DNA of 62,959 nucleotides, counting the filler, from Licmophora abbreviata (taxonomy: Eukaryota), in NCBI GenBank assembly GCA_900291995.1. It is 16 parts of 16 records of this genome, joined end to end, with 100 filler letters (N's around TTAATTAATTAA, not from the genome) between each part and the next. Parts side by side here need not be neighbours in the genome. Positions count along the whole stretch, not along the records: positions 8,264 to 11,631 come from OLMU01004297.1; positions 11,732 to 15,970 come from OLMU01004299.1; positions 16,071 to 17,646 come from OLMU01004300.1; positions 17,747 to 22,326 come from OLMU01004301.1; 12 more parts are not named here. One strand, written 5' to 3'. The stretch's first letter is position 1; each line of letters starts with the position of its first letter. Made by a program: the position numbers and the translations under genes. Under the pieces are notes generated by a model. That model saw only the letters and a program-made list of their open reading frames with translations, was not told where the DNA came from and made no database searches. This document shows positions 4,974-53,683 of this stretch, piece by piece.

Positions 4974-5073
4974 NNNNNNNNNNNNNNNNNNNNNNNNNNN
5001 NNNNNNNNNNNNNNNNNTTAATTAATTAANNNNNNNNNNNNNNNNNNNNNNNNNNNNNNNNNNNNNNNNNNNN
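4974..5073. other. Artificial assembly linker N44-TTAATTAATTAA-N44 (first of 15)
   Basis: The same 100-bp linker with six-frame stops starts at 4974, 8164, 11632, 15971, 17647, 22327, 26577, 28247, 31996, 37657, 44686, 47801, 54273, 58045 and 59572. Confidence 0.99.
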
Positions 5074-7944: not shown

Positions 7945-8540
7945 GGTATGATTGATGCCTGGCGTGTCGGTACCCGGTAGATCGAAAACTGAAAAATGAA
8001 TTCATGCGCGAAAACCATTCTCCTAAACACGGCGGGCTTGAGGCCTTTTTGTAGGCTCTTCTCGCTTCTCGAACCTATTTTGATATTTTTCTGTTCAACC
8101 TATACATATGGTCTTTGATACCACTGAGTACTGGGACAATAAGTCGAAGCGCCGGGCGGCGCGNNNNNNNNNNNNNNNNNNNNNNNNNNNNNNNNNNNNN
8201 NNNNNNNTTAATTAATTAANNNNNNNNNNNNNNNNNNNNNNNNNNNNNNNNNNNNNNNNNNNNCGGATTCGATCTGTACATGTCCGGTGCTCTCTGTTGG
8301 GTCTCTCTAGGAGGCTCTCTTTTTCCTAAACGATTGCAACCCAAACCAATGCAAGCGAGTCTCCAGACTTCAAGTTAACCAGTACGTAGTAGGCCTTATC
8401 GTTGTAGTCTACGTATCATACTACCTAGCTTCAAGTTGGCCTGGCATATAGGCTCTTTGCATAAAAGGCCTTGGCTGCGCGCGCTTCCATGATCGCTCAC
8501 AAATTGAGAATCTTTTCAATCGAAAAAGCATCTTTCCACC

Positions 8541-9961
8541 ATGAAATCTCTCTTTTCGATTCTTGCCATCTCCCTTCTCTCGATCGACCACCGTGCCGTG
8601 GCGCAGAATCCTACAGGCTGTATCAGCTACGTCACCCCTGGCGAGGACTACTTCCCAGAAAAGGTCTCTCCTTCCTTCTCCAAGCTTTGGTCTGTTTCGT
8701 ACCACAAGACCTACAAGATCGCCAAGAACTTGGAGGATGGTACGACCTATCTCCTCTACCAGTGCGGAACCGAGCCCCCTGCGAACGTCCAGGCCGATCT
8801 GACTCTGTCCATCCCCTTGCAGAACGGAATCGCACTTTCGACGACACCTCATCTTCCCCACATGGAGTTGCTTGGCGTGCGCGACGAGATCAAGGCCTAC
8901 TTGGGAGATAAGCAGTGGATCTCCTCTCCGTGCATGAACGAACGCTTCACGACGGGGGAGACCATCAACATTCAGTACCCCGACGACGAGGGTGCCATTG
9001 AGCGTCTCTACGAAGCTACGAACAAGGACATTGTTCTCTTTCACAACCCAGGTTTCAATGCCAACGTCACGAACCGCGTCTCTGCCACGGCTTGGAAGGA
9101 GCGCAACAACCATGGGATTGGTGAATGGCACAAATACTTTTCTGTCTTCTTCAATTTGGAAGCCAAGGCCAACGAAGACTTTGAAGGCATCGTTGGTCGC
9201 TATGAATGCACCAAAGGAAACGCCAACGAAATCATTTCTTCGGATGCCAAGCCCAAGGTAGTAGTTGCTGAGTTCTCCACCTTCTGCGGTGGGTGGAGCG
9301 TGGGCGCATGCCCCAACTTTTACTGCGATCTGATTCAGGACTGCTCGGCAGAAATTCTGGAGAACGACAATGTCGGCAGTATTGTCAACCCTGCGTGTGG
9401 AACGGAGCGCAACTACAAGAGCGCCAAGGAGTTCGCCGAGTTCGCCAAGGATGCCGACGTCTGGATCTATCCCGGACATGGGGACTACTACTTTGACACT
9501 GCCTACGCAGACTTCAAGGAGGAACTTGATACTATGAAGTCCGTCCAGAACAAGCAGGTCTATGATACTGTCCTCACCGCCTTGAACACCTGGTTTGAGC
9601 ATCGTTTGGTCGAGTACGGTGAGTCTTCTTTGTTCTTCCGTATAAAGTTGGTATGAAACTCGTCTAACTTCTCACCTTCTCTTCTCGCGCATCAGACTTG
9701 GTCTTGGAAGACCTCTGCAACGCAGTTGGCGCCTCGCATCCGTTGCTTCCCCACGAGCCCGGTTTCTTGCGCAACGTGTTCACCGACCCTGTTGGGGACC
9801 TTGGACAATGCGAAGACCCCTCCGTCGGTTTTGAGCTCCGTGCTGAGGAATGCACGCCGTTGGTTCAACTCTTGGAAGGGACGTCGGCAGCGCCCTCCCT
9901 GACGATGGTTGGAGCTCTCACCGTGGCTTACTTGGTGACGCTCATCGGAGTTGCCTTCTAG
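8541..9961 (+). CDS. CBA1: Cobalamin acquisition protein 1-like (periplasmic-binding-protein-like fold); secreted with a hydrophobic/GPI-type C-terminus; intron 9619-9695
   Basis: Signal peptide MKSLFSILAISLLSIDHRAVA; motifs DYFPEKV, SYHKTYKI, YLLYQCGT and EWHKYFSVFFNLEAKAN recalled as typical of CBA1 homologues. The GTGAGT..CAG intron joins EY-D-LVLEDLC in frame. C-terminus SAAPSLTMVGALTVAYLVTLIGVAF. Confidence 0.82.
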
Positions 9962-11102
9962 TTTGTGAAATGAAAGGAGTCCGAATCCATGCTGAATTCG
10001 TAGTAACATAAAACAGCTTGGAGAGTATATGTATTCATGAACACCGGACCTCATGCATAGAACGTGTCCGATCCTGGGTTGATTCCGAGCATGTTCCCCG
10101 AAGCCGTGTCGTCGGGGTATTGTAAATATACCCTGATATCCCACCATCGAGTGAAGCAAAGTGTACCCTTCCACAAGATGGATAGGAACCAAGTGGGCGG
10201 CCCAGGTCTTTCTCGATGAGTGCATGATGTAGTGTGTGAACTTATTACATCGCACCAAAATGACGTCTTGGTGGTGTAAATCATCGCCGTGAAGTCATGA
10301 TCGTGCAATCAGATTTTGAACTCTCTAATAAGTATTGATGCTGCAACACCAGGAAGATCCGCTTGGACATATCTAGGACTGACTGACTGACTCTCCGTTG
10401 TGAGACCTGCGCTCCTCTAGCGAGTTCGAAAACGGGCGAATGCGCGACTTCGTAGTCTAGAGGCCGAGTACCGGTAGACGGCGTCTCTCGTCCGCACCGA
10501 AATGGTCAATGCGATCGCGTTGATGGTGTCGTGATTTGAATGGATCGAACACATCCTACATGGTACCAGGGAGCAACGAGGAAGTTGGATGAGCATGTGA
10601 GCATGCGATTCGTCCGCCCACACCAAGGGATCCAACCGATTTAAAAATTGGACATTATATACGAGGTCAGGAAGAGATTTCTCAAAGAGCTCGTCGGTGT
10701 AGATTTCGATGAACAAAAAGGGGACGGCGCTATGATCCTATCGACGCGGTGCGAGAAAGCCGCAGTGTGATGCCACAGCCATGCGCTTGGCACAGAGGAG
10801 GAGGAGGAGGAGGGGCGTGGATCTCGCTCTCATGCTATCAGTACACAGTACTTCGAATTCATCACGGCAGCGACAGGCAAACTTCGGTTTGATGATGCAA
10901 CCAGTATTTTTCTTTTTCATTACATTGACTTAACGTGCAAACTCACTAAAGAGAGCTACCGGTGTTCTACTGGGATCTTTCGTTTTCATTCTTCTTCCGG
11001 GCTCTGTTTGCAATCATTTCTTTTTTCTTTTGCTTTCCCTACCCCTTTGCTCAAATATAGCGACATGGAACATGGATGCTGTAAGACTTGCTACTTCTTC
11101 TT

Positions 11103-11631
11103 CTACCACCACCACCAAAATTTGGATTCAGTGCGACGCCCACCGCGTGTGATCTTGCCTGTAACCGAGCCTGCATTCTCGTCGTCGTGATCGTGCGTGG
11201 GAGCTGACCCACCTTGACCACTGGCGCCTCCATAGGATGCAGGGCCACTCTTGCTTCCGCTTTTGCTTCCACTCTTGCTTCCACTTGGCCCGCTCTTGCT
11301 TCCACTCTTGCTTCCACTCTTGCTTCCACTCTTGCTTCCACTTGGCCCGCTCTTGGGGGCCGGAGCAGGTCGGGTCGGAAATGGAACGGGGCGAGTTGGG
11401 AGAGGAAAGGGAGGTGGGAAGTTGGGTCGCGTGGGGACTGGTTGGCGGTGAGGAGTATACTGAGGGTGAGAATGGGGCGTGGGAGGGTTGTTAGGTGAAA
11501 CTGGGCCAGTTCGGGTCGGGAACGGCACAGGTTGGTTTCCTGGCGAAGGTCCTGGGCCCGGGGATGGTCCTGGACCTGGGAAAGGTCCTGGGCCCGGGGA
11601 AGGGCCTGGACCTGGGAAAGGTCCCGGACCC
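11103..11631 (-). CDS. Low-complexity C-terminal fragment (GPGP[FS]P repeats, Pro-rich, KSGS repeats, ends FWWWW); probably the end of the giant VWA-repeat protein
   Basis: Frame is open from the linker at 11632 to the stop at 11103, on the same strand as the repeat protein that runs into the other side of the linker. Confidence 0.7.
11243..11354 (-). repeat. 12-bp coding tandem repeat (KSGS)n
   Basis: Plus-strand unit CCACTCTTGCTT; translates KSGPSGSKSGSKSGSKSGSKSGPSGSKSGSKSGSKSG. Confidence 0.9.
11540..11631 (-). repeat. 18-bp coding tandem repeat GPGP[FS]P, truncated by the linker
   Basis: Units such as GGTCCTGGGCCCGGGGA and GGACCTGGGAAAGGTCC repeat up to the contig end. Confidence 0.85.
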
Positions 11632-11731
11632 NNNNNNNNNNNNNNNNNNNNNNNNNNNNNNNNNNNNNNNNNNNNTTAATTAATTAANNNNNNNNNNNNN
11701 NNNNNNNNNNNNNNNNNNNNNNNNNNNNNNN

Positions 11732-14700
11732 TGATACCACAAGATACGGCGTGTCGTCGAAAACATTGAAGTCACTGCCAATGACCGGCTGCCCAAACTG
11801 ATCCTCGCCTGTAGCTACTACCAGGCCGCCTGGCTCGCTGGGCTGCACGTTCTGTGTGTACGAGCATGTGTACGTCTGTCCTGGTAGAATGACTTGTGGG
11901 ATCTGGCATATTCCCTTCCCATCCAGATCACCATGAACCTCGTCGACGAGACTTCGAATCGTAACGGAATCGATGTCAGACTCATTCTCTATTGCAATTG
12001 TGAATGTGACGCCAGTGCCTCCAGGGGGAATGCTCACTGTGTCTGCTGATTTCGTCACAGCTATACTTGGCAGCTCATCTACAATGATAACCGTTGTGAT
12101 GTCTACGTCTGTGGCTTGATTTCCTTCATCGTCGACGCCGATTCCGGTCAGAGCACTGGTCTCGGAATCACCCGTTGATCCAGTGACGTTCCCTTCAAAT
12201 GTACAAACAAATGTGTCACCTGGTGCTAGAACAACTGGGACGCTACAGTCGCCCTTGCCGTTGAGATCGCCATATTCTTCGTCGACGAGGCTTGTGATGG
12301 TGAGCGGGTCAGAGCCCACAGAGTCATTTGTCACCCATGCAATGAACTCGATCATGCCTCCAGGCGCTGCAACGCTGCTCGGACTCGCAATCTTCGAGAC
12401 GGTTATTTGCGGCAGAACGTCCTCAACTAGTGAATCGAATCCTATGACGGGATTTCCTTCGTCGTCCACGCCAGACGCAATCACGACGGCTGGTTCTGTT
12501 TCTCCTCCGTCACCTGCCATTGTCACGGGGAACGTGCATCGGTACGTCGCTCCAGGCTGGATAATTTGCGGGACGTTGCAATTTCCCTGTCCATCCAGGT
12601 TGCCGTGGACAGAGTCTTCGAGTGCTGTTATTGTGACGGGATTGCTCTCCTCGGATAGGTTCGTGACTGATACTGTGTACATGGAATCCGCGCCCGGCTC
12701 GGGTGGGACAGGAAGAGGCGTTTTGACGACAAATATTTCAGGTTTCAGATCTTCCACTGTGACAACTGATTCCCCGCTATCTGCGACCTCATTTCCACTT
12801 GGATCCGTGCCAGTTGCTGTTGTTGTTCCTCTCTCGACGTAACCAACGTCACCCGATACATCTTCGGTGAAAGAGCACATATATGTCGCTCCTGGGGAAA
12901 GGGTGAATGGGACGGCACAAGACCCCTTTCCGTTGAGAGGGCCAGAGGCGTCGTCGACAAGAGAATAGATATCAATAGGATCGGCTGCTGAGTTGGTGAC
13001 CATCACTGTGTAAACCACTACCGCACCGGTTTCTGGGACTGTCGTTCTATCGGGCACTTTCACCACCGTAATCTCGTTCACAGTCCCATCAGCAATCACC
13101 GCAACTGCGGCGATGGCTGAAGCAGTGACACTATTGCCCTCGTCATCTTGGGCCGCTGCCGTGACAGTTCCGATTTCCTCGTCTCCCCCTTTGCCAGCAA
13201 CTAGATGAGAGTAAGCACACACAAAAGTGTCTCCGGGTGAAATGATTTGGGGCACGAAACAATTGCCAGCTCCATTGAGGTCACCGTGGACGTCATCGAT
13301 GAGGCTCGTCACCGTCAATGGGTCACCATCGTTGCTTTCATTTCGAATCGATATCTCAAAATTTGTCAGTTCACCGGGTTCTGGGACTGAAGTGCGATCT
13401 GGTCTCTTTTCAATGCTCATTTCAGGCAATACATCCACGACTGTAATGACAGCTGTGTCTGATGCAGACGCTGGATTGCTTTCGTCGTCGCGTCCTGACA
13501 CCATTGTTGTGCTTGTTTGCGTATCGCCAGCAGAGCCAGTCACCATGCTGGTGTAAGCACATGACCGGGTCTCGCCTGGCTGAAGAACAACGAAGACGAG
13601 ATTGCTGCAGCCCTTTGTGCTGAGGTCACCTTCAACACTGTCGTTTAGTGCATTGATCGTGACTGGATCCCCGTCACCGGACAAATTCGTGACCATAACA
13701 GTACAAATTATCTCGTCCCCGGGCTCCTTTACAGTTGTAGACGCGGCCACCTTGGTCAAGGAGATTTCAGGGGGGGTATCTGTAATCAAGACTGATGTGT
13801 CATCAGCCGCCGCCACGGGATTGTTCTCGTCATCCTGTCCAGTAGCAGACGCAATTCCGGATACCGATGTTCCTGTCGTGCCCATCACTGTCGTCTCGTA
13901 CGAGCACGTATACGTCCGTCCTGGATCGATTACCCGGGGCACAGAGCAGCTCCCTTGTCCATTGAGATCCCCGTCGATGCTATCGGTCAAGGAGTTGATG
14001 GTAACAGGATCGCTTTTCCCGCTCTCGTTGGAAAGTTCGACGGTGTACGTCACAGTACCGCCAGGCTCGTCAACAGACATCACATCAGACGACTTCTTCA
14101 GACTGATGACAGGGTCAGCGTTGACAATTGTTACGGAAGTGCTGTCTGAGTCGGTCACTTGGTTCAGTTCATCGTCCTCGGCAGTCACAGTGACAACCCC
14201 GGTTTCAATTGAGCCAGCAGTGCCTGATACTTCTTGCAAGTAGTCGCAAGCATACGCCTGCCCGGGGAGAAGAGTCTCACTTAGAATGCTTGTGCAGGTT
14301 CCCAAGACACTCAAATCTCCGTGCTATGTAAGAGTGCAGGTGAAGTATGCTGAAGTTAGAAAAAGCGTGTTCGACGAGACAAACATGTTTTCAATGGCAA
14401 AGATTCTCACCTGGCTGTCAACTAAGCTTTTCACAAAAATCGGCTCCTCGGAGTCGTTCATTACTTTGACAGAGAAGCTGACGAGTCCTCCTGGTTCGTT
14501 AATAAGGGAGGTCCCGGCTGTTTTTTGCACGGAGACTGCTGGTAGAGTGTCTTCAATCACGATTGTTCCCGTGTCTGAAGAGAATACGAGATTACCTTCT
14601 TCATCTGTACCATCTGCCGTCAATGTACTGGAGAAAAAATCCCCCGCATTTCCGGACACGTTTCCAATGAAAGCGCATGTTATTGATTCGCCGGGAAGGA

Positions 14701-15970
14701 TCGTGAGGGGCAGCGCGCAGCTGCCAAGCCCGTTCAGGTCACCAAACTCAGTGTCAACTAGGGTCGTGACATTCAAAGAATCACTTGATGTAGGCGAGGT
14801 ATTTTCGATGGTGACCGTGAAGACCATTTCCGCTCCTGGCTCTGGGATCGTTGGTACATCAGGAGTCAACTGGACACTTAGGTCAGGCAGCACGTCTTCG
14901 ATCGTCACTTCTGTAATATCAGAAGCTGTAACCTGATTTCCCTCTTCGTCCTCTCCGGTAACAGTGGCGTTCCCTTGCGACACAAAGCCTACAATTCCTG
15001 CCACGAGGGCATCGTACTGACATTCATAGATTGCGTCCGGTAATATGACGAAAGGGACAGAGCAATTACCAAGAATGTCAAGGGGGCCATCAATCGAGTC
15101 TACCAAAGAAAGGATCGTCAAGGCGTCCCCGCTTCCAGAAAGGTTCTCAACACGAACCATATAAGTCACGTTTCCTCCCGGTTCTGGCAATCTCGAATCA
15201 CTGACAGATTTATCGATTGTGATTCTTGGAAGCGTGTCGATAATTTGGACGACATCGACGTCCGCTGCCGATACAGGAGTACCTTCGTCATCGGTCCCAG
15301 CGGCGGTTATCTCTGAAATCCATGTTGACCCAGCGTCCCCGGCGACAGATGCGACGAACGAACAAGAATAGACTTCACCAGAGACAATCGCTTGGGGGAC
15401 CACACAATCACCAGTGCCGTTCAGAGGTCCATATTGGCTATCGATGAGCTGGTCAATCCGAACAGGATCAGTTTCATTCGACAGATTCTTAATCTCCACG
15501 GTCCATAATATGGGCGCACCAGGTTCAAACACAGTTGAGCTGTTCGCGATGTACTCTACTGAGATACCGGGTACGGCGTTAAGGATCTCAATGATTGTCT
15601 CGTCAAAGGCCTGTGCCGGATTCCCTTCGTCATCTGCACCTTGTACTGTAACTGTGCCGTTCAAGATATCTCCACCACTACCACTCTGTGGAGCTGTGTA
15701 TGTACAGCTGTAGGATCCGCCAGGCTGAATGATGATTGTCAGCTGTTGACATGTTCCCTTGCCACCAAGCGGACCATCAATGCTGTCCTCGAAGCTCGAT
15801 ATCGTAACAGGGTCCCCTGCTGGACTGTCGTTGAAAATCTCAACAAAGAAGTCGACGTCATCCCCTATCTCCGGAATGCTCGTTGGGTCCGCCGTCTTTT
15901 CGACTCGCATGACAGGAAGCGTGTCCTCGATGGTGACTATTGCGTCATCGGCTGCGGAAACGGGGTTCCC
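11732..15970 (-). CDS. Giant secreted repeat protein, segment 3 (about 12 Ig-like DUF11/DUF7507-type repeats); intron 14324-14410
   Basis: Repeats of about 115 aa: I.V.K.A....V.EPGG.V.F.V.V.N.S....VTI.SL.D...G.L.G.G.C..P..I.PG..Y.C......G..G.......TA.G.DDEGN.V. The GTGAGA..TAG intron joins LVDSQ-HGDLSVLGTC in frame. Confidence 0.9.
15607..15970. repeat. 364-bp near-identical direct repeat, copy A (copy B at 16187-16550)
   Basis: Sequences match at offset 580, with one mismatch seen (15908 C vs 16488 G; Met vs Ile). Confidence 0.93.
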
Positions 15971-16070
15971 NNNNNNNNNNNNNNNNNNNNNNNNNNNNNN
16001 NNNNNNNNNNNNNNTTAATTAATTAANNNNNNNNNNNNNNNNNNNNNNNNNNNNNNNNNNNNNNNNNNNN

Positions 16071-17646
16071 CGCCCTTGATGGCTCCAAACTGATAGAGGG
16101 TGCCACGGACGGATAGTCTGATGGCCCTTGGGAGGTTGATGGACTCAAAGAGGGATCCCTTGTAATCTGAATCAGTGTCGTGTCGGAGGCCTGTGCCGGA
16201 TTCCCTTCGTCATCTGCACCTTGTACTGTAACTGTGCCGTTCAAGATATCTCCACCACTACCACTCTGTGGAGCTGTGTATGTACAGCTGTAGGATCCGC
16301 CAGGCTGAATGATGATTGTCAGCTGTTGACATGTTCCCTTGCCACCAAGCGGACCATCAATGCTGTCCTCGAAGCTCGATATCGTAACAGGGTCCCCTGC
16401 TGGACTGTCGTTGAAAATCTCAACAAAGAAGTCGACGTCATCCCCTATCTCCGGAATGCTCGTTGGGTCCGCCGTCTTTTCGACTCGGATGACAGGAAGC
16501 GTGTCCTCGATGGTGACTATTGCGTCATCGGCTGCGGAAACGGGGTTCCCCTGCTCGTCTTCTCCCATCGCCGTACTCGTGCTGGTCTCGGTGTCGCCCA
16601 TACTTCCGGTGACAAGGCGCTCATATGCGCACGAGTAGGTACCAAAGGGCTGAAGTGTCAGAGGGACGCTACAGTTTCCTTTTCCGTCCAGATCTCCGTG
16701 AGTGTCGTCTGTCAAGTCGGTCACTGTGACAAGGACGGGGTCGTTGTTCTGGATCTCGACGACAAAAGTCACATTTGCAGCGGGCTCCGTGATGAGATTG
16801 GGCAGTGCAGTCTTGTTCAGGGTCAGCGCGGGGCCGGTTGAAAGGACTGTAACTGTTGCGTCGTCCGATGCAACGACCTTGTTTCCGTCGTCGTCTCGCC
16901 CGGTCGCGGTTGCAATGCCAGTCTGGGTTGTTCCAACATCGCCTATAACGGGGAACTCGTACGCACACACATAAGAATCTCCGGGTTGTAGAGTGAGTTC
17001 AATGGTACAGTTCCCGGTCTGGTTCAGGTTCCCGTGCGCCGTATCGGTCAGGTCTTCAACGATGACCGCTTCGCCCGTCTCGTTGTTCCAGAGTTCGATG
17101 ATAAACTCCACCAAACCTCCTGGCCCATCAATCGTCGACTGCGTGGCGGTCTTTCTGATGCCAATCATGGGAAGCGTGTCTTCGATAGCGACAGTGGCGC
17201 TGTCAGAGGCCGATACGTTGTTGGCGTTCTCAGATCTCCCACCCGTTGCGGTGACGGTGCTTGTGCTGACGTCGCCAGCATTTCCGACGATGGGCCACAT
17301 GTACTGACAGGTATACGAAGCCATGACGGGAAGCACTTGCGGCAAGATGCAGCTACTCTCCGAGAGGACACTGGCGTCCAGGTTCCCTGCCAAGTCGTCA
17401 AGAAGGCTGAGAAGTGTCATTGGATCGCCACCCCCTGAATCATTTGTCACGACAACTGTGAAGTTTACTAGCTGCCCTGGTTCCGGAACAACTGGTGTGT
17501 CAACGGTTTTTTGCACCAAAATATCGAGGCCATATGAGGGAGCTTGTGAAACTGATGGAGACGAGGAAGGGTTGCTTGAAGGCTGCATGCTTGTCGATGG
17601 TCCCGAGGATGGGACGCTCGACGGAGCGCTGGAAACCGAAGGACTT
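16071..17646 (-). CDS. Giant secreted repeat protein, segment 2 (4 Ig-like repeats flanked by PSxxPS linkers)
   Basis: Frame is open across the whole contig; same repeat consensus; both ends lie in Pro/Ser repeats. Confidence 0.9.
16187..16550. repeat. 364-bp near-identical direct repeat, copy B
   Basis: Matches 15607-15970. Confidence 0.93.
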
Positions 17647-17746
17647 NNNNNNNNNNNNNNNNNNNNNNNNNNNNNNNNNNNNNNNNNNNNTTAATTAATT
17701 AANNNNNNNNNNNNNNNNNNNNNNNNNNNNNNNNNNNNNNNNNNNN

Positions 17747-20700
17747 TGTAGTGGATGGAATCGAGCTAAGGGATGGTGACAATGACGGGACTGAGGTTGG
17801 ATTTTGGGAGATCGAGGGGCTTGAGGAGGGATCTCTGGAGGGCTGAACACTTGTCGACGGAGACAACGATGGGTGGTCGGAAGGAGCTTGGGAACCAGAA
17901 GGGCTTGAGGATGGCGCCCGCGATGGCGCAGATGAAGCCGACGGTGCTAGGCTGGGTGATGTTGACAGACTTGGCTGAGAACTCGGAGAAAGTGAGACGC
18001 TTGGTGTACTACTTGGGATCGTCGAGGTGCTCGGTGATGCGGATGGTTCTGAATAGATCAGAACTGTCGCGTTTGCAGAGTCGCTCACAGGTGCGTCATC
18101 GTCGTCTTTCCCTGATGCTAGGACCACATCTATATCCTCGTCGTTCGGTCCACCTACGACATTCCTTTCGAACGTGCATGTGTACGTATCCATGGGGAAA
18201 ATAGTCACAGGTAGGGTGCAGCTTCCCACATTGGCGAGACTGAAAGCATTTTGTCCGTTCACGCTCTCAGTCAGAGTATCCAAAATAACAGAGTCGACAG
18301 TTGAAGGATTGAAGACCTCTACGGTGAAGTTCACGGATCCTCCGGGGACAGGAATAATATCAGGGTCTGCTCTCTTCGACACAACGATTCCTGCAGACGG
18401 GATATTCTGAATCTCCACAGTCGCATTCGAAGAACCTGTTACCAAGGCGCCATCGTCGTCAATCCCCGAAGCGGTTACTGTGTCTAGCTCCGTATCAAGG
18501 TAGTTCCCTGCGACAATCCTCGTAAACGAGCACGTATAGGACGTCCCTGGCTCCATGATCTGAGGCACCGTGCAGTTACCCTGCGAGTCCAGATTCATGA
18601 TGTTACCACCTTCGACCAGATCCGTAAGTGAATTGATGATAACCGTATCCACGGTCGATGGATTGTAGATGATGGCAGTGAACGTAACGTCATCCCCCGG
18701 TTCATTGGGGAACTGAGGAGAAGCCAGTTTCGTCACTACGATTCCAGCCGATGGTACGTCGACTATCGTAACAGTTGCGCTGCTACTGCCAGAAACCTGG
18801 ACCCCATCATCGTCGACTCCAGAAGCAGTTATCGTATCAGTATCAGTATCGCTAGGGACCCCCACGACCTCTCGCGTAAACGAGCATGACCACGAGCCTC
18901 CCGGAGAAATGCTCAGGGGAAGGTCACATGTTCCAGTACCGTTCAGATCCATATTCATACCACCCATAAACGAGTCGGTGAGTTCGGTTATATCAACCGT
19001 GTCGACACCCGAGGGGTTGTCAATCAAAACTGTGTACGTGATCGTTCCTCCTGGTTCGTTTATCGATACTGGATTGGCCGATTTTGTTACAACAATACCC
19101 GCCGAGGCGACATCAGCAATCGTAACATTTGCCTCCGAAGAGCCTGAAACAGGCACCCCATCATCGTCCTCACCAGACGCGGTCACCGTGTCAAAGTCTA
19201 CGTCTCCTGGATCTCCTGCAATGTTTCGAACAAAAGTACACTGATAAGTCCCACCTGGTGCAATCGTCTGGGGAAGCGAGCAGCCATTTCCATCCAAGCT
19301 AACTGTTGTCAACACTTGATTTTCATAGTAAGCATCTTCGAGAACCGTTATTGTGACCACATCTGCCGACGATGGATTAGTGATCACAGTTGAGAAGGTC
19401 ACTGGGCCACCAGGCTCATCAATCAGTGGCGTCATGGCTACCTTCGACACCTCGATTCCCGCGGACGCAACATCTCCCACGGAGACAGTTGCGTTGGCTG
19501 TACCAGAGACAGGAACAGAATCGTCATCGGCGCCGGAAGCTAATACAACATCCATCTCAGTGTCTCCAGCATTACCAGAGACAAATCGCGTGAATGAGCA
19601 TGAGTACAAATCCCCTGGGTCGATTGTCTGTGGCACAGAACAGTCTCCAACTCCATTCAAGCCAGTCGCGGAGCCACCATCGATGGTATCGGTGAGGGTA
19701 TCGATCACAACCGTGTCAGCTGCAGAAGGGTTGATAATTGAAATGGTAAAAATTACATTTTCACCTGGTTCCGATACCATTGTAGGATTTGCAGACTTCA
19801 TGACCATGATGCCTGCAGAGGGGACATCAATAGTGGTGACCGCAGCCTGGGCTGTTTCGGAGACAGTCTCGCCATCGTCGTCTTCTCCAGACGCAGTGAC
19901 GATGTCCGTCTCGATGTCCAGTGGCATTCCAGTGACATTTCGGGAGAATGCACAATAGTAAAAATATCCCTGAGGTGCATCGATCTGGGACATGAGGACT
20001 TGAGGGGTTGCACATGAACCTAATCCATTCAAGGAAAACGCTTGACCACCGTCGATTGCGTCGGTGAGTGAATCAATCGTCACAGTTTCACACGAATCAT
20101 TGATAATTCCCACTGTGAAAGTCACAACTCCTTCAGGCTCGCTCACTGCAGTAGGAGAAGCGCTCTTCGTGACGGTAATGGCGGGGGTGTCATCCACCGT
20201 GATAGTCGCCGAACAAGTGGCGGTTCCACAGTCACCAGTTACCGTGAGGGTAACCACAGTGTCACCCATACTGTAGGGTCCTTCGTTGTCAATCCCAACA
20301 GAGTAAGCGTTTCCATTACTGATAGTTCCACTCGTAATGTCATTCAAGAAAGTTTCCAAGTCAGGAGGGGTGTACGTGCAGTCGTCCGTGTCGCTGACAT
20401 CCACCGTGATATCGTTACAGACAGCCGTCGGAGGCGAAGCAGTTACGGCGATTGATGCTGTGCATGTATCAGTAGCTCCGCAGATATCCGTGGCAGTGAG
20501 CGTCACCGCGGTCGAACCGACGAAGTAGGGACCAGGGTCGCTCAGTGACAGTGTGAGGCTATCATTGTCGGTGCTTGAAGCGCCAATGAGATCGGCAAGG
20601 GCTTGGACATCGGGAGGTGTATATTGACACATACCGTTGGAAAAGCCATTCGAAGCAAATGATTGATCCGCACAGCCTGCAGTAGGATCTTCGTTGGTCA

Positions 20701-21726
20701 CAGTGATGGTTCCTGTACAGATTTCGCAGTAGCCCATCGTGTCGTTCTTCACTAGGTCGACGTCAGTAACACCAAGCGCAAAGGCGGTAGTTCCAGGAGG
20801 ATCGTATTCAATCGACAAAGGGAGACCATTGGGACCAATATCTGGACCTTGCTTGATGACATCTGACGAAAGCGTTGCTGTGCAGGTGCCCTGGTCGTGT
20901 GCCACTACGATGTCCTTGCAGCCGATTGGGATTTCGGCAACGCATGCTGCGAGGACATCTTCTATGACAACTTGGGTCAGTGCATTGTTGGCAAAGTCAA
21001 TGAGACTGTAGGTATTTCCATTGAGTGCAATTCCTGCATATCCTGGATAGGTATTGTCGAAGACGCCACCGGTATTCCCACCACCGCTTTCCTCGTTCGA
21101 AACGATGGGAAAGATATATCCGTTGTTCGTGTCGAGAATGGCATTGAGTTCTGCAAGGCTGTCGTAAGGATCGAGATCTCCATTGGTTTCGACATCTGTA
21201 AAGATGAGGGCGCAGAAGGTCCGAGGCTGAGTTGCAAAGGACAGGCCCAGGGTGTCGTCTGCTGACTGTCCAATGGCAGTGTAGCCAGGCTCGATGCTGC
21301 CATCGGCCTGAAGCAGGTTGAGGTTCGCAATAAACTGTGCCTGATCACTGGTGAAGTCTCCATGAGCGATCGGCAATCCGCTGTTTGCAGATCTTCCAAA
21401 ACCAACAACGGCGACCTGAAACTGGTCGTAAGTTGCGTTGACGAGCGCATCAAAGACAACCTGTGTGTTTGACTGCATCGTAGCCTGCTCGTTGCCCATA
21501 CTTCCGGACTCATCGAACATGAAGATGATGTCGCTCGACGTATAGGCTTGCGTGCAATCCTGCGCATCTGTGTGATAGAGTTGATGTAAGAGGAGGAAGT
21601 GCATAATGATTGGTTGGTGTTTTGTTGACTTGGGTCGATATTCGCCATATTGATTTGAATCTTACCACTCCTGAAGACGGCCGAGAAGACGGTCAGTAGA
21701 CCGACCGCGGCGTTCAGAAACTTCAT
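17747..21726 (-). CDS. Giant secreted repeat protein, segment 1: signal peptide, VWA domain, 3 HYR-like domains, 6 Ig-like repeats, Pro/Ser linker; intron 21568-21665
   Basis: Exon 21726-21666 encodes MKFLNAAVGLLTVFSAVFRS; the GTAAGA..CAG intron joins in frame to DAQDCTQ. VWA MIDAS motif DIIFMFDESGSM; HYR-like VGSTAVTLTATDICGATDTCTASIAV. Confidence 0.92.
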
Positions 21727-22553
21727 ACTGCTTCGTCGATGGTCTCCTGGCCAATGGACCGAATCCGTGGATTGAGTCTCTAGACAAGAGATTCAATTTG
21801 GTCACGCCGGCAAAAGTCCAACAAGTGCAGTGAGTGTGTCCCAAACGTCGCTCGCTCACGCCGTCCTAGAACAAACGCAAGGGCTAGACTCTCCACTGCA
21901 AACGATTTAAATCCTTTCTTTCTTTGTGGCCTCTTCTGTTCAAGATATGATACACATCAACCAACGAGGAGCGAACTGCAATAGTTTTTAGTGTGTGATG
22001 ATATTGTGATCATGTTGCCCTGCAAGACATTTGTAAACGACGTCGATTTGAATGAGATCATGACAGTGTTCATTTGAAAACATTCAGCTCTGAGGAGTAT
22101 TTCAATCGACTTCGAGGTAATATACAATTTTATGTTTGAATAAAACGAATATGACAACGGACGACTTTCTTTTCTTCTATCATTCCATTTTAAGCTTAAT
22201 CATTCATTAATGTCTTAACTCAGATTCAAATCCTTTTCAGCGGCTAAAGCCGCTTCGGCTAGTCCGTGTTCCCTCGACTGGCCTATTCTTCGATCGAGTA
22301 CTGTCTGCGCGCGTAGCGCGACAGTGNNNNNNNNNNNNNNNNNNNNNNNNNNNNNNNNNNNNNNNNNNNNTTAATTAATTAANNNNNNNNNNNNNNNNNN
22401 NNNNNNNNNNNNNNNNNNNNNNNNNNCTCTGGCCGGCCTGCTCGGTGCCACTTCCCAGCCTACAGTAGCCAGCCACCCAGACTGCCGTCCTCCGACATTC
22501 CAACATGTCCAGAATTTGTACGAGCTATAGAATCTCCTGTGAGCTCTGGGACG

Positions 22554-48598: not shown

Positions 48599-50515
48599 CT
48601 AGCCACGTCCAACAAACGGCATGTTTGTTGCCATGACGGTCAAGTGCAGTACATTTGCTTCCAACGGAAGGTTCGCCATTGTCCAGAAAGTCTCAGCTGC
48701 ATCGTCCATGGTCATCATGGGCTCTTCCAGATGGGATCCATTCGCTTGAAGGGCTCCTTGTCCAACTTTGTTGGTAGTCAAGCTGATCTCACTCACAACA
48801 TTGCCAAAGTCAATTTGTCCACACGCGACATTGATCGCACGCCCATCAAGCGCAATGCATTTCGTCAGACCAGACAGTGCATGTTTCGAGGTCGTGTAGG
48901 GTGCAGAACCCGGCCGTGGAGTGTGAGCCGAGATGGATCCATTGTTGATGATTCTACCACCACGTCCGCTGTCGGCCATGAGCTTCATGGCGGCACGTGC
49001 ACACAAGAAGGGACCATAGACGTTGGTCTTTAATACTCGTTCAAAGTCTTCCACTTTCGTTGCTTCCACGCTTGCCGCAGGACTTGCGATTCCAGCATTG
49101 TTAAACAAGAGGTCGAGTGTGCCGTATTTTTGCCGGACAAGTTCAAAGAGCTTTTCCACGTCCCCTTGCACTGTAACATCCGTAGGAACACAGCAGTATG
49201 CACTGCTGGAGGACTCATTCTTAATCAAGCGTGCAGTTTCCTCCAGAGCTGACCTTCGTCTCCCCGCAAGTACCAAGACATTCCAACCTCCCTTGGCAAG
49301 ACGGATCGACACGGCACGCCCAATCCCGCTTCCCGCCCCCGTAACAACCGCCACCTTGGATTGCATGATGGGTGCTCCCATCGGTGCAGCAGCAGCATCC
49401 TCCACACTTGGTATGATTTCGATTCCCGGCGCAATCGCAGACGGAAAATCTGCAATATACTCTCGCACCAACAGTTCCGCCGTGGGAGCCGGTGGTATAC
49501 CCAATTGAATCGCCCGCGAGGCATCAATCTTCGTCGGAAAGCTTCCCACAATCTTGTTCAAACCATCATCTTCATCTAGTGGATAAGTAACGGTTCCCAA
49601 TTGGGCACGCGAGGACTCTGCGACAACCTTGAATCGCAGAGCATCCTCCAAGTCTCCGAGAGAGAGTGCTACTGCAGGCAAAAAGACGGTCCGATCAAAG
49701 CCGAGCGTCGTATCAATGGTCTCCTTCAGTGCATCGTGCAAAATTAGCATGGCCTGGATCGCTGCACGCTTGCCCGTGACGGCATGAAGCAGATTCCGAG
49801 CAATGGGTAAAGCAGTAGTACTTGTATTTGCATTCAGTGGTTCACGAACCACCGCACTGAAACAGGATGTCGTGGCAGCGTTGGGCGCTCCCGCCCGCAC
49901 CACAATGGTGGGCAATCGGAGACCACGAGCATCGACAAAGCCTCGTCTCGTATAGTCCGCCAAGAGGAGTTCACAACACGCCTTGGTGGTTCCGTAGGTC
50001 GTATGTGGAGTCGCCCGGGTGGAATCGCAAATCACATCATCTTTGGTAATATAGTCCGTGTCGGCTCCGGCTCCAATGGTGGCGCCGGCGGAAGCAAAAA
50101 TGAGTTTGACACGCTCGCTGCTGTTTCTGTTGTGAAAGTCCCGAGCGGCTTCCAGGATATTCAAAAAGCCAAACAAGTTTACATTCATGCACAAATCAAA
50201 GTCCCGTTCTCCATCGCCACTCATGACGGCACCAAGATGGAAAATCGAGACATGACTGTTGTCAGTATGGTGATCCAAAAGAAGACTCTTGCAAAAGGAG
50301 ACTTCCGCGACACTGCCAGTGACTCGCGTGACAATCCCAGAGTCTTCCAGGGCGGGAAATAATATGCTGGAAGGAAAGCGCACGTCGGCAAGAATGATTT
50401 TCGAAATGGAAATTGACACTTTTTCTGATTGAATCGATCCACGACGCAACAGTTCATTGGCAAGACACTGACCGAGAAAACCGCCACCGCCCGTCACGAT
50501 AACAGTGGCCATCAT
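48599..50515 (-). CDS. Fusion of a D-erythronate dehydrogenase (DenD)-like extended SDR and a classical SDR
   Basis: N-half: VTGGGGFLG, IFHLGAVMSGDGERDFDL, YGTTK, GFVDARGLRLPTIVVR.G.PNAA...S.VVREPL. C-half: VTGAGSGIG, LFNNAG, GGRIINNGSISAHTPRP, YTTSK, ACGQIDFGN, ending TVMATNMPFVGRG. Single open frame, no introns. Confidence 0.88.
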   Translation of the reverse strand: MMATVIVTGGGGFLGQCLANELLRRGSIQSEKVSISISKIILADVRFPSSILFPALEDSGIVTRVTGSVAEVSFCKSLLLDHHTDNSHVSIFHLGAVMSGDGERDFDLCMNVNLFGFLNILEAARDFHNRNSSERVKLIFASAGATIGAGADTDYITKDDVICDSTRATPHTTYGTTKACCELLLADYTRRGFVDARGLRLPTIVVRAGAPNAATTSCFSAVVREPLNANTSTTALPIARNLLHAVTGKRAAIQAMLILHDALKETIDTTLGFDRTVFLPAVALSLGDLEDALRFKVVAESSRAQLGTVTYPLDEDDGLNKIVGSFPTKIDASRAIQLGIPPAPTAELLVREYIADFPSAIAPGIEIIPSVEDAAAAPMGAPIMQSKVAVVTGAGSGIGRAVSIRLAKGGWNVLVLAGRRRSALEETARLIKNESSSSAYCCVPTDVTVQGDVEKLFELVRQKYGTLDLLFNNAGIASPAASVEATKVEDFERVLKTNVYGPFLCARAAMKLMADSGRGGRIINNGSISAHTPRPGSAPYTTSKHALSGLTKCIALDGRAINVACGQIDFGNVVSEISLTTNKVGQGALQANGSHLEEPMMTMDDAAETFWTMANLPLEANVLHLTVMATNMPFVGRG

Positions 50516-50644
50516 GCTGCTGGAGTAGACAATGTGTGATACGAAGTACTAGTCTAGAGTGTTTGTGTTGAAAGTTGCGTTGTTGAATGTGGTTGAAATT
50601 GAAACGCACGCGATCTTGTGTGTTTCGCGCCATCTTCGTTGTGC

Positions 50645-52508: not shown

Positions 52509-53683
52509 ATGTACAATGATGACTTGGCGACGCCGCTCCTCGCTGCACAAGGCTCCAAGGAGGACGTACGTAATGACGAAGAAGAGGGAGAGTTACGAAA
52601 CCGTGGTGATGCCGATGAAAACGATGGAGAATACGATTCAAACGAGGTCAGGGATCATGATGATGATGGCGGACCAGCATCGTGGCCTGTGGCAGCATGT
52701 CATACAGGGGCTTTTCTGACACGACCGCTTTGTCCAGAACCTGAAGACTGGTCGGATTTCTCCAGGGCAAAGCTTAGACTACTCAAATTTCTTGCTGTCA
52801 CTCTTCTTGGGATCGTCGCAACGCACAGATTCGTGACGTGGATGGTACGTTCGCACAAGGGACAGCCTATTTAGACTGACTAGCTACATCCCTAGATTAG
52901 ACCAAGCCGACATCACTCACACGCCCGCGCCATCCTTGTTTCTCATTCAAGAACTGGGANCATCGGACTGGTCTCGCGCTTTGTGATGTTTGGCTGTACG
53001 AAGGAAACTTGATACTTCTCGACCTGTTTGTGTTCTTTGTCGTAGGTCGCTTGCATGAATCGACGGGCGTCGATCACGTGGCCTTTGTATCAGTCATGCT
53101 GCTGAGTTCGTTGTATACGTCCGTGATTCCGAATCTTTCCTTTCTACAGCATTCCACTACGTTGTATGAGATCTTTTGCGTTTGGCCATGGCAGCTGTGG
53201 GTCTTTGCCGCGGTCTTGGTACTGCCAGTGTGTTTGGGGGTGGCGGTACTGCATGTGCGGTTCTGTCTACGACAGGGTTGTCTGTTGGAGAAACTTTCTG
53301 ACTTCGTGATCGCACTCCTTTTATTCCTGCTTCCTCCAATACTTCAACCGTCTTTTGAGTTTCACCACTACTATGCCGGATGGTTGATTGGAATGCATTG
53401 CAATCTCGACACCTGGTGGAGTAAGCTGTCCATGGGCTGGTGTTGGGGACAGTATGTCAATGGCATTGCCGTGTGGGGAAGAGACCCTATCTTGGTTTGT
53501 GCGTTTGCTAATTACATTGGTAAGCGGCAGCACTGCTTCATGGACGAGGGTGCCAACGTGGATGAGTCATCCTCGTGTTCCTATTGGGTCAACTACAACG
53601 ACGGACCACCCGCGCGTCCGCACAACGACTGGAGGAACTGCTCAGCGACATCCACGGACAGCATGTGGTCGATGGCTGGATGA
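52509..53683 (+). CDS. Multi-pass membrane protein of unknown function; intron 52845-52951
   Basis: The GTACGT..AAG intron joins exon 1 in frame to the 53009 ORF; several hydrophobic helices and an FHHYYAGWLIGMH motif. Confidence 0.72.

Follow-up and report, generated by a model that had tools for sequence, protein, structure and literature searches.

The window analysed here, a stretch of 62,959 bases from the diatom Licmophora abbreviata (assembly GCA_900291995.1), carries on its minus strand, between positions 11103 and 21726, four coding segments of a modular protein with a signal-peptide-like N-terminus, a VWA-type head, three HYR-like modules, a stalk of Ig-like repeats interrupted by Ser/Pro-rich spacers and, possibly, a Lys-rich tail. 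Collectively, the segments are understood as three or four fragments of one scaffolded locus, probably a mosaic diatom nuclear gene for a secreted surface protein of very large size that resembles fibrillar adhesins, with a stalk horizontally acquired from bacteria. The window itself consists of 16 contigs of 1,427-6,929 bases each, chained end to end, and its 15 joints are identical artificial 100-base elements (N44-TTAATTAATTAA-N44) that serve as a six-frame stop spacer. Three of the joints, none of them genomic sequence, separate the segments of interest (11632-11731, 15971-16070 and 17647-17746); others lie at 4974-5073, 8164-8263 and 22327-22426, and nine further ones elsewhere in the window. 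In the direction of the gene, the contigs concerned are named A (17747-22326), B (16071-17646), C (11732-15970) and D (8264-11631).

The reading frame begins in contig A. Exon 1 (21666..21726, minus strand, as are all parts of the gene) has its ATG at 21726 and comprises 20 codons plus 1 nt; the N-terminus it encodes, MKFLNAAVGLLTVFSAVFRS, resembles a signal peptide as judged by eye, without a predictor. Intron 1 (21568..21665; 98 nt, phase 1, GTAAGA...CACAG) links the ATG frame to the main frame; among 15 stop-free GT..AG candidates for this join, its donor fits the consensus best. From 21661 onwards the minus strand carries stop-free frames in the remainder of A, in the whole of B, in the whole of C save for one in-frame TAG, and in D from its start to a stop codon. 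The TAG is contained in intron 2 (14324..14410; 87 nt, phase 0, GTGAGA...ACATAG), whose excision rejoins SLVDSQ|HGDL, the exact consensus of the repeat unit. Among 27 in-frame, stop-free GT..AG pairs that remove the TAG, intron 2 is the best, with a unit score of 127.8 bits compared to 111.2 bits for the next, as given by a hidden Markov model (HMM) whose training set included the intron-split unit. Where two in-frame GT-AG introns had been claimed, the description thus fits intron 2, whereas intron 1 is of phase 1. DNA bearing intron 2 is found also in metagenome contigs (X1 record 1: 13939-14582, with one difference), so that a local assembly error does not explain it, though the sample might be the source. 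Contig B (16071..17645) is open at both ends and encodes a Ser/Pro spacer of 40 aa, four repeat units (16158-17525) and a second Ser/Pro spacer of 29 aa. Contig C falls into two exon parts, the first (14411..15970) open at the contig start and holding a unit fragment of 17 aa, then four complete units and the start of the intron-2-split unit, the second (11732..14323) continuing with the remainder of the split unit and seven units, open to the contig end. The candidate C-terminal tail in contig D (11103..11630) has 175 codons, GPGP/Pro-rich and then (K-S-G-S)n, with the stop at 11103-11105. With both introns removed, the conceptual protein amounts to 1,294 (A), 525 (B), 1,384 (C) and 175 (D) residues, that is, 3,378 in total without a stop.

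The four same-strand segments of the original prediction are therefore present, whereas the three linkers between them are the artificial contig joints and not biology. Since these joints are artificial, a single giant protein is read from the order of the four contigs; the predicted length of more than 3,300 residues holds as a sum of pieces, with continuity across the joints a matter of that order. The case for one gene is made by the ends of the pieces. The only start is in A and the only stop in D, the inner ends are all open (A at its 3' end, B and C at both), and the end of A and the beginning of B both lie within a Ser/Pro spacer. Simple arithmetic puts the correct order and strand of the four contigs by chance at about 2/384, even if the contigs were already adjacent. 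We consider it likely that A, B and C belong to a single gene. For D as the tail of this gene the chances appear slightly below even, and the assignment is tentative. The tail is of low complexity (P 25%, G 18%, S 15%), has a Lys at every fourth residue of its (K-S-G-S)n runs and ends in FWWWW; no Pfam family and no transmembrane-like stretch was found in it, and its being open in two frames tells against it. In its Lys-richness it presumably resembles the silica-associated tails of diatom wall proteins. Downstream of the tail, contig D has two overlapping frames on opposite strands, at 8424-9671 (minus, 416 aa) and 8508-9653 (plus, 382 aa), neither of which contains a Pfam family.

Several observations count against one continuous gene. 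There is no read-through of any contig joint. Positions 16187-16550 of B and 15607-15970 of C (minus strand), which represent the last unit of B and the first of C, agree over 364 nt with a single mismatch, and past this stretch the two diverge abruptly, B into a Ser/Pro spacer and C into further units. Both the B-type and the C-type continuation occur in metagenome contigs of one sample (X1, X2), those with the B-type continuation as loose ends at 15585. The chained contigs could be fragments of at least two paralogous giant genes, or two haplotypes placed serially, in which case the real protein would be shorter than, or different from, the 3,378 residues; the artificial joints, the beginning of contig C in mid-unit at the contig edge and the separate clades formed by A-type and B/C-type units (see below) would all fit with this. 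Exactly one start and one stop over four pieces with open inner ends, a spacer of one kind on both sides of the A-B joint, and consistent order and strand argue otherwise, and a recent duplication of a unit within one gene fits the same data. The 364-nt repeat reflects either the recent duplication of a unit, where the assembly then broke, or the serial chaining of two alleles or paralogues, and given the near-identity the stalk may count 21 distinct units plus one duplicate or allele. None of the metagenome contigs placed over contig C bridged its ends, and a check of contig order on other genes split across joints returned six end-touching open reading frames (ORFs), none with a Pfam family. 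The sequencing runs listed comprised eight DNA-type entries from three studies, with shares of at most 0.23, and none was recorded as RNA. Overall, separate genes or haplotypes appear unlikely, if by no means negligible, and one gene is the reading carried forward here.

The gene is eukaryotic: it bears introns and is host-like in composition, which agrees with the proposal that it is host-encoded, as seen in the intron 2 preferred over all other candidates and in a GC content of third codon positions (GC3) near that of its neighbours. Its GC is 0.523 and its GC3 0.525, compared to a GC3 of 0.56-0.59 in eukaryotic neighbours and 0.95 in a Chloroflexota relative of the stalk. Relative synonymous codon usage (RSCU) correlates at r 0.45 with the neighbours versus 0.23 with the Chloroflexota relative; the value of 0.45 is below the 0.67 between sets of neighbours, which detracts from the argument, and codon usage is not decisive as a test of foreignness. 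Elsewhere in the window, contigs carry genes for a kinesin motor, Maf1, a GT64 glycosyltransferase, ankyrin proteins and NDUFV2. The organism-identified matches of NDUFV2 are all diatoms (5/5, 70-80% identity; best match overall 85%), namely Cyclostephanos tholiformis, Cyclotella atomus, Dactyliosolen fragilissimus, Grammatophora oceanica and Proboscia inermis. Because these are centric and araphid, a role of the protein in raphid gliding is without support. No close sequenced relative of the host turned up in the collections compared.

Bacterial contamination among the diatom contigs might be argued from the fact that contigs A, B and C hold this gene alone, that the closest named relatives of the repeats are bacterial, and that the source seems to be at low depth in marine metagenomes. 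In addition, a 2025 survey of isopeptide domains, as far as its text was available, places the repeat family in bacteria and archaea and deems eukaryotic matches likely false positives or contamination (PMC12617251). The explanation is nonetheless very improbable for the present contigs. It would have to accommodate an 87-nt, TAG-bearing GT-AG segment whose removal restores the unit consensus, a start connected to the main frame only through a 98-nt intron of phase 1, long Ser/Pro spacers that are almost absent from the bacterial relatives, a GC3 distant from that of the Chloroflexota relative, and a head common to proteins with a GDPH motif.

That head begins with a VWA-fold domain (20930..21541, minus strand), at residues ~9-212 after the signal peptide, with a metal-site motif of DxSxS, Glu and Asp. 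Its AlphaFold2 (AF2) model, built from a 12-sequence alignment with 11 relatives, has a predicted local distance difference test (pLDDT) score of 81.8 and a predicted template-modelling (pTM) score of 0.83. In Foldseek, all 50 top PDB matches of the model are VWA-type (E 4.4e-8 to 8e-7; template-modelling (TM) score 0.46-0.61), including integrin beta-I, vWF A3, LapA vWFA (9no5, rank 6) and CMG2, and the Atlas neighbours of the domain are VWA/integrin-beta clusters. Residues resembling a metal-ion-dependent adhesion site (MIDAS) are D18-E-S20-G-S22 and, at the end of the fourth strand, D124; the Thr position is occupied by the family-invariant E92, which we take to be the arrangement of integrin beta-I domains. 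The VWA domain had been described as MIDAS-intact; the fold, DxSxS and D124 go some way towards this, the usual Thr being replaced by E92. The VWA domain is followed by three HYR-like, Cys-containing units of ~80 aa (20180..20929, minus strand) with a mutual identity of 29-35%. In a word-index search with the head region, PF02494 was present in all 17 matches (best E 6.7e-32), and the nine named ones are from Flavobacteriales, Saprospiraceae, Chitinophagales and similar groups, presumably Bacteroidota. Searched with phmmer against representatives, the head had 854 matches at E<=1e-3 (best 9e-61), of which many match in 10-44 stretches, and, except for a VWA-only group, they run through residues ~200-460. 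Between the 460-aa head and PDB sequences there were 0 matches at E<=5. The family assignment of the head is weakened by its Pfam scores: VWA_2 (PF13519) reaches 24.6 for a cut-off of 27 and VWA (PF00092) 18.7 for a cut-off of 23.8, both in the N-terminal half only, and HYR (PF02494), for which 21.7 bits are required, reaches 20.5 over the region of 220 aa and 18.4 when unit 2 is scanned by itself, with no Pfam HYR match for units 1 and 3. The three HYR-like domains originally proposed can thus be retained as three mutually alignable units whose homologues carry PF02494, but Pfam itself sees unit 2 only, and that below threshold.

The relatives of the head point to its origin. The set of such proteins, drawn from metagenomes and metatranscriptomes, comprises P0130/P0272, P0225, P0250/P0276, P0217, P0197, P0198, P0262 and P0208. 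In P0130 (723 aa), head residues 3-459 are aligned at 37% identity with the same VWA-then-HYR order and three HYR, and the protein continues after the head into a poly-Thr/Pro linker and on to a GDPH motif. In P0225 and P0250 the motif reads DPHFKTW/GDPHFKTW; P0217 is marked by long PS/PT spacers, and P0197, P0198 and P0262 have Lys-rich C-terminal tails. Invariant over the family of VWA domains are D-x-S-x-S-M, G-F-G, E92 and two Cys. P0130, P0225, P0250, P0217, P0197, P0198, P0262 and P0208 all look like short secreted proteins with a common divergent VWA domain, and the P0130-type family probably represents diatom adhesive or wall proteins that Pfam VWA models mostly miss. According to the accessible parts of two studies, GDPH is a diatom-specific domain of adhesive-trail proteins, often found alongside vWD (10.1101/2023.03.06.531300; PMC7335047). 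Because the head is shared with GDPH-motif proteins, the gene is read as a mosaic that joins a head of diatom type to a stalk of bacterial type. Two points weigh against the diatom part of this reading: the diatom origin of the P0130-type proteins would follow from their motifs, and the sole organism-identified protein related to the VWA part is incomplete and comes from a contig of 1,963 nt in a Nitrospirales metagenome-assembled genome (MAG). Bacterial proteins with VWA and DUF7507 are also known (P0049, P0073, P0078, P0088), and one of them, P0073 from Caldilineaceae, shows 35% identity over 63 aa with the start of the VWA domain; joint transfer of VWA and stalk is therefore possible.

The stalk was delineated with our own HMM, grown from one unit, which finds 22 full repeats of ~113 aa and one 17-aa fragment, distributed as 6 in A, 4 in B and 12 plus the fragment in C. 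Median pairwise identity between units is 38% and the second-highest pair reaches 55%; being so diverged, the repeats are no assembly artefact. Exactly two Cys are present in 20/22 units and three in 2/22, and the motif G.DD.GN.V is retained over the units as G91 in 20/22, D93 in 21/22, D94 in 16/22 and N97 in 14/22. The prediction of at least 22 repeats of about 115 aa with two Cys and this motif is confirmed, bar the possible duplicate or allele noted above, as is the separation of repeat blocks by Pro/Ser stretches. The six A-type units (18050..20185, minus strand), which retain K7, D/E43 and D85, are followed by a Ser/Pro-rich spacer of 101 aa (17747..18049; S 42%, P 21%), the open frame of which runs off the end of contig A; the spacers of 40 and 29 aa stand at the start and end of B. 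They reach 26-28 P+S per 40 aa, and a density of at least 24 occurs in only 1/105 bacterial repeat matches. There are in addition 45 N-x-S/T sequons. On the plus strand opposite the repeats lie antisense frames of 208-240 aa (12120-12842, 13584-14243, 14244-14936, 16140-16841 and 19332-19958); Ser/Thr/Pro-rich and of low complexity, they look like by-products of the codon composition of the sense strand and not like genes.

A Pfam scan of contigs A and B and of contig C as two exon parts gave scores for PF24346 (DUF7507/CLIPPER_2) of 34.2, 48.8, 35.4 and 91.2 bits in the four repeat-bearing pieces, the last in the second exon part of C, compared to a cut-off of 27; DUF11 (CLIPPER) scored 27.5 and 41.1 bits in two pieces with a cut-off of 24.6. 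The resemblance to DUF11/DUF7507, as originally proposed, is thereby placed above the cut-offs for both families, which a 2025 survey, in the portions available, renames CLIPPER and CLIPPER_2, respectively (PMC12617251; 10.1101/2025.04.25.650565). The AF2 model of the unit at 13775-14113, built on an alignment of 21/22 units, is an all-beta sandwich with seven strands of at least three residues and a pLDDT of 96.2. Its PDB matches are generic Ig-like/E-set folds (RbmA, transglutaminase, complement MG, TRAP subunits; Z <=11.2), and the top one, the biofilm scaffold RbmA (Z 11.2), is level with many generic Ig-like folds. Foldseek places the CLIPPER structure 9ifr at rank 19 (TM 0.46), and it falls outside the VIA top 50. 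With 9ifr matched weakly and Ig-like folds generically, family membership is founded on sequence and not on fold, and the weak 9ifr match is not read as evidence against homology. A profile of 21/22 units, leaving out the intron-spanning one, had 0 matches at E<=1 among PDB sequences.

Bacterial ancestry of the stalk is suggested by its relatives. A word-index search with 864 residues of contig C returned 105 proteins at E<=1e-3 with 28-48% identity; in 14/105 the organism is named, and all of these are bacteria (including Acidimicrobiia, Actinomycetota, Anaerolineae/Chloroflexota, Caldilineaceae, Halioglobus and Streptomyces). By our reading of the table, PF24346 is present in all but six of the 105; many of them end LPXTG-like, PEP-CTERM-like or hydrophobic-plus-Arg, and they have about two Cys per unit. 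Among GTDB species genomes there is one matching locus, on the Chloroflexota MAG contig JAXLXC010000009.1 (39% identity over 826 aa), where an ORF (L002 3-5948) encodes at least 1,982 aa of DUF7507 and DUF11 units, open at the locus start; this is the relative with GC3 0.95 mentioned above. JGI metagenome contigs contributed one locus only, at 31% identity. The Atlas neighbours are DUF11/DUF7507 clusters, from Bacteria wherever taxa are recorded. A set of 610 near-full-length bacterial units has conserved columns in common with the diatom units (K7 0.89, N29 0.97, D43 0.95, C55 0.85, C69 0.96, D93 0.87). In a FastTree phylogeny combining the 22 diatom units with the 610 bacterial ones, the A units group together, all six in a clade with support 0.97, and the sixteen B/C units form an almost pure clade, within which two units of the bacterial-looking protein P0041 are nested. 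In a homology search and phylogeny of the kind proposed with the original prediction, all named relatives of the repeats are thus bacterial and the diatom units fall within bacterial diversity. Two features of the tree weaken the argument: the 22 units are not one clade, the smallest clade enclosing them holding 63 bacterial units too, and deep support is weak, so no donor is named.

We infer that horizontal transfer from bacteria brought in the stalk array and that the array was joined to a head already in use in GDPH-type proteins of diatoms. The proposal of a horizontally acquired adhesin scaffold is accordingly narrowed: the relatives of the stalk are bacterial, but the scaffold does not appear to have been acquired whole, since the head recurs in proteins that look like those of diatoms. 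A quite improbable alternative is that the DUF7507 array is an old, vertically inherited stramenopile family and that the bacterial matches reflect database bias. The Phaeodactylum tricornutum gene Phatr3_J48356 is annotated as 'DUF11 domain-containing', an annotation line being what the available part of the source provides (PMC12113381), and it was the only mention of DUF11 in diatoms among the accounts examined; the superfamily is thus not peculiar to the present organism. The composition of the present gene is fully host-like and its units are old, with their median identity of 38%; moreover, our repeat searches were restricted by length classes and word sharing. Vertical descent has to contend, however, with the lack of any named eukaryote among the 105 matches, the Atlas clusters and the GTDB and JGI loci, with the placement of the diatom units within bacterial diversity and of the two P0041 units among B/C, and with the survey already cited for the family in bacteria and archaea, in whose available text eukaryotic matches are suspect. 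In the literature, DUF7507 was met only in that survey, no paper was found on TIGR01451 in eukaryotes, and accounts of diatom horizontal transfer and fibrillar adhesins contained nothing on this family; supplements of the Trailin preprint might list DUF11-type proteins.

The A-type and B/C-type units differ in a manner relevant to cross-linking. Over all units, K7 is found in 20/22 and D43 in 21/22, with Glu in the remaining one. Column 85 is Asp in 6/6 A units and Gly, Ser or Ala in 16/16 B/C units, while the B/C units have kept the Lys K7 in 14/16 and D43 in 16/16, along with the disulfide pair; the A units keep Lys, Asp (one Glu) and the Asp at column 85. Among the bacterial units, 548/610 have K7, D43 and an Asp or Asn at column 85 (K/D/D 345, K/D/N 203). 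Part of the family carries a triad of Lys, catalytic Asp and Asn for an intramolecular isopeptide bond. Equating column 85 with the isopeptide Asn-806 of CLIPPER is a mapping by eye from the construct in supplement Table S6 (PMC12617251), without coordinates: V-V-N-K-V-T-A-S-G-G-D was aligned to column 85 plus T-V-T-A-x-G-x-D93, and L-N-D, which contains the catalytic Asp, to S-L-x-D43. With Gly, Ser or Ala as acceptor residue under this by-eye mapping, the B/C units would be unable to form the isopeptide bond. The A units, with their triad of Lys, Asp and acceptor Asp, may form Lys-Asp isopeptide cross-links in the endoplasmic reticulum or outside the cell. A complementary pattern is seen at Asn97, present in 0/6 A units versus 14/16 B/C units, opposite to column 85. 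It is conceivable, although we would put the chances low, that the protein is the first well-founded eukaryotic CLIPPER_2 protein, with cross-linked and non-cross-linked units in one molecule and in the midst of adaptation to the eukaryotic secretory pathway. If true, it would contain the first intramolecular isopeptide domains in a eukaryote and could constitute a graded mechanical spring, with glycosylated Ser/Pro hinges and a Lys-rich tail tethered to the silica wall. In any event, the gene allows stalk units that have the presumed isopeptide acceptor to be compared, in a natural setting, with units that lack it.

The predicted protein would comprise, from N- to C-terminus, the signal peptide, the VWA head, three HYR-like Ig modules, at least 21-22 CLIPPER_2 domains and possibly a tail. 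The stalk would be organized in blocks of 6, 4 and 12 or more units, with Ser/Pro spacers between the first blocks and the join of the last two falling in an assembly gap. On entry into the secretory pathway, one disulfide per stalk unit would form on folding, and the Ser/Pro hinges would probably be O-glycosylated. The VWA head, backed by the three HYR modules, would be presented at the end of a segmented stalk. At ~4 nm per Ig-like domain, the head would be held ~80-100 nm from the cell surface, plus the hinges. There it may bind its ligand in a metal-dependent manner, to mediate cell-cell, cell-substratum or cell-bacterium contact. The bacterial wall anchor would have been replaced by a eukaryotic tail and, if the Pro-rich and (K-S-G-S)n tail is part of the gene, this tail could fasten the protein to wall or silica. 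The polarity, with an N-terminal head and C-terminal attachment, would be that of a fibrillar adhesin of Gram-positive type. Of the features of the fibrillar adhesin class, a signal peptide, an adhesive-type head and tandem stalk domains are present; a surface anchor was not found, and the candidate tail on contig D is tentative. As for the proposed Ca-stiffened stalk, the acidic G.DD.GN.V motif belongs to a hairpin whose conservation is just as strong among the bacterial relatives.

Adhesion as the function is open to two objections, namely that it is suggested by the architecture only and that segments A-D have no membrane anchor, GPI-like (glycosylphosphatidylinositol-like) end or wall-anchor motif. 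LPXTG, GDPH, DPHF and RGD strings are likewise missing from the segments, the gap sequence between contigs being unseen. The protein could instead be a structural component of the wall or frustule, a component of the matrix, or a receptor for bacteria or gametes, with the stalk as a spacer or wear-resistant coat. The KSGS repeats of the D tail, through their presumed likeness to silica-associated tails, and the Lys-rich C-termini of the head relatives P0197, P0198 and P0262 would suit such roles, as would the lack of a known ligand and the top fold match of the unit to RbmA, tied as that is with generic Ig-like folds. In Seminavis, according to the part of the study available, vWD/GDPH families respond to bacteria (PMC7335047). 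In favour of an adhesin, an N-terminal VWA head on a stalk is the standard plan of fibrillar adhesins in what is accessible of the isopeptide survey (PMC12617251), and the head is common to proteins with GDPH, a domain of diatom adhesive trails. The roles proposed overlap with adhesion and do not exclude it. A surface protein that is not an adhesin is considered rather unlikely, and a fibrillar-adhesin-like protein is retained as the preferred interpretation.

The remainder of the window holds some further features. In its first contig, an 873-aa frame on the minus strand (164-2782) encodes a hybrid histidine kinase with HisKA, HATPase_c and receiver domains. A 649-aa frame at 48602-50548 (minus) combines an N-terminal NAD-dependent epimerase/3-beta-HSD-like domain with a C-terminal short-chain dehydrogenase domain. 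A lone N occurs at window position 52960.

Lastly, our analysis has importance in placing CLIPPER/CLIPPER_2 stalk domains, hitherto described only in bacteria and archaea, in an intron-bearing diatom gene. It suggests that uptake of an entire bacterial stalk array is possible, and that such an array can be combined with a head and spacers of eukaryotic kind and retained. Bacterial adhesin domains have so far been documented in diatom adhesives in one case only, that of the Trailins, to which a different family, in an apparently non-raphid diatom, would now be added; what is new beside them is the CLIPPER_2 family, the multi-copy stalk, the fusion to a diatom-type head and the split acceptor pattern. 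The non-raphid host points to attachment between cells, in chains or aggregates, or between diatom and bacterium, and not to gliding. For genome analysis, the case illustrates how, in fragmented algal assemblies, giant genes with repeats come to be distributed over several contigs and are easily mistaken for contamination.

Among known systems, the bacterial DUF7507/CLIPPER_2 adhesins are the closest to the stalk. They share with it an HMM score above cut-off, a tandem array placed after an N-terminal adhesive-type domain and signal peptide, and the same positions of conserved Lys, Asn, Asp and Cys pair, and the combination of VWA with DUF7507 is known from them too. The diatom gene differs from them in its introns and long Ser/Pro spacers, in the absence of an LPXTG, PEP-CTERM or type IX secretion system (T9SS) end from its segments, and in column 85, where the Asp/Asn of 548/610 bacterial units is replaced by Gly/Ser/Ala in all sixteen B/C units. 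Phatr3_J48356 of Phaeodactylum is a diatom gene with the same Pfam superfamily label, compared here by annotation only. The P0130-type VWA+HYR proteins have the same head (37% identity) with the shared VWA invariants and carry, instead of a DUF7507 stalk, PT/PS linkers and GDPH(F)K(T)W or Lys-rich tails.

Trailins are, in the parts of the preprint available, diatom trail proteins with a horizontally acquired bacterial Choice-of-Anchor-A domain, one of which has PTS-rich repeats like other trail proteins; a vWA-like domain is noted in one trail protein, Ca11384, and an analogy to RTX adhesins is drawn for the diatom strands (10.1101/2023.03.06.531300). Like the Trailins and other diatom trail proteins, the present protein would be secreted, very large and modular, and it unites a bacterial surface domain with Pro/Thr/Ser-rich regions. 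Unlike them, it has no match to Choice-of-Anchor-A (PF20597; E<=0.01, five pieces) and no GDPH, its borrowed element is a multi-copy Ig-like stalk and not a single adhesive domain, its host is nearer to centric and araphid than to raphid diatoms as judged from NDUFV2, and it is known from sequence alone. The RTX adhesins of Gram-negative bacteria, such as LapA and MpIBP, likewise set a ligand-binding domain, vWFA or other, on tens of tandem Ig-like domains, but these belong to a different repeat family, and the diatom protein has no RTX or type I secretion system (T1SS) signal. In RTX adhesins the ligand-binding region is near the C-terminus, so that a VWA head at the N-terminus gives the diatom protein the opposite polarity.

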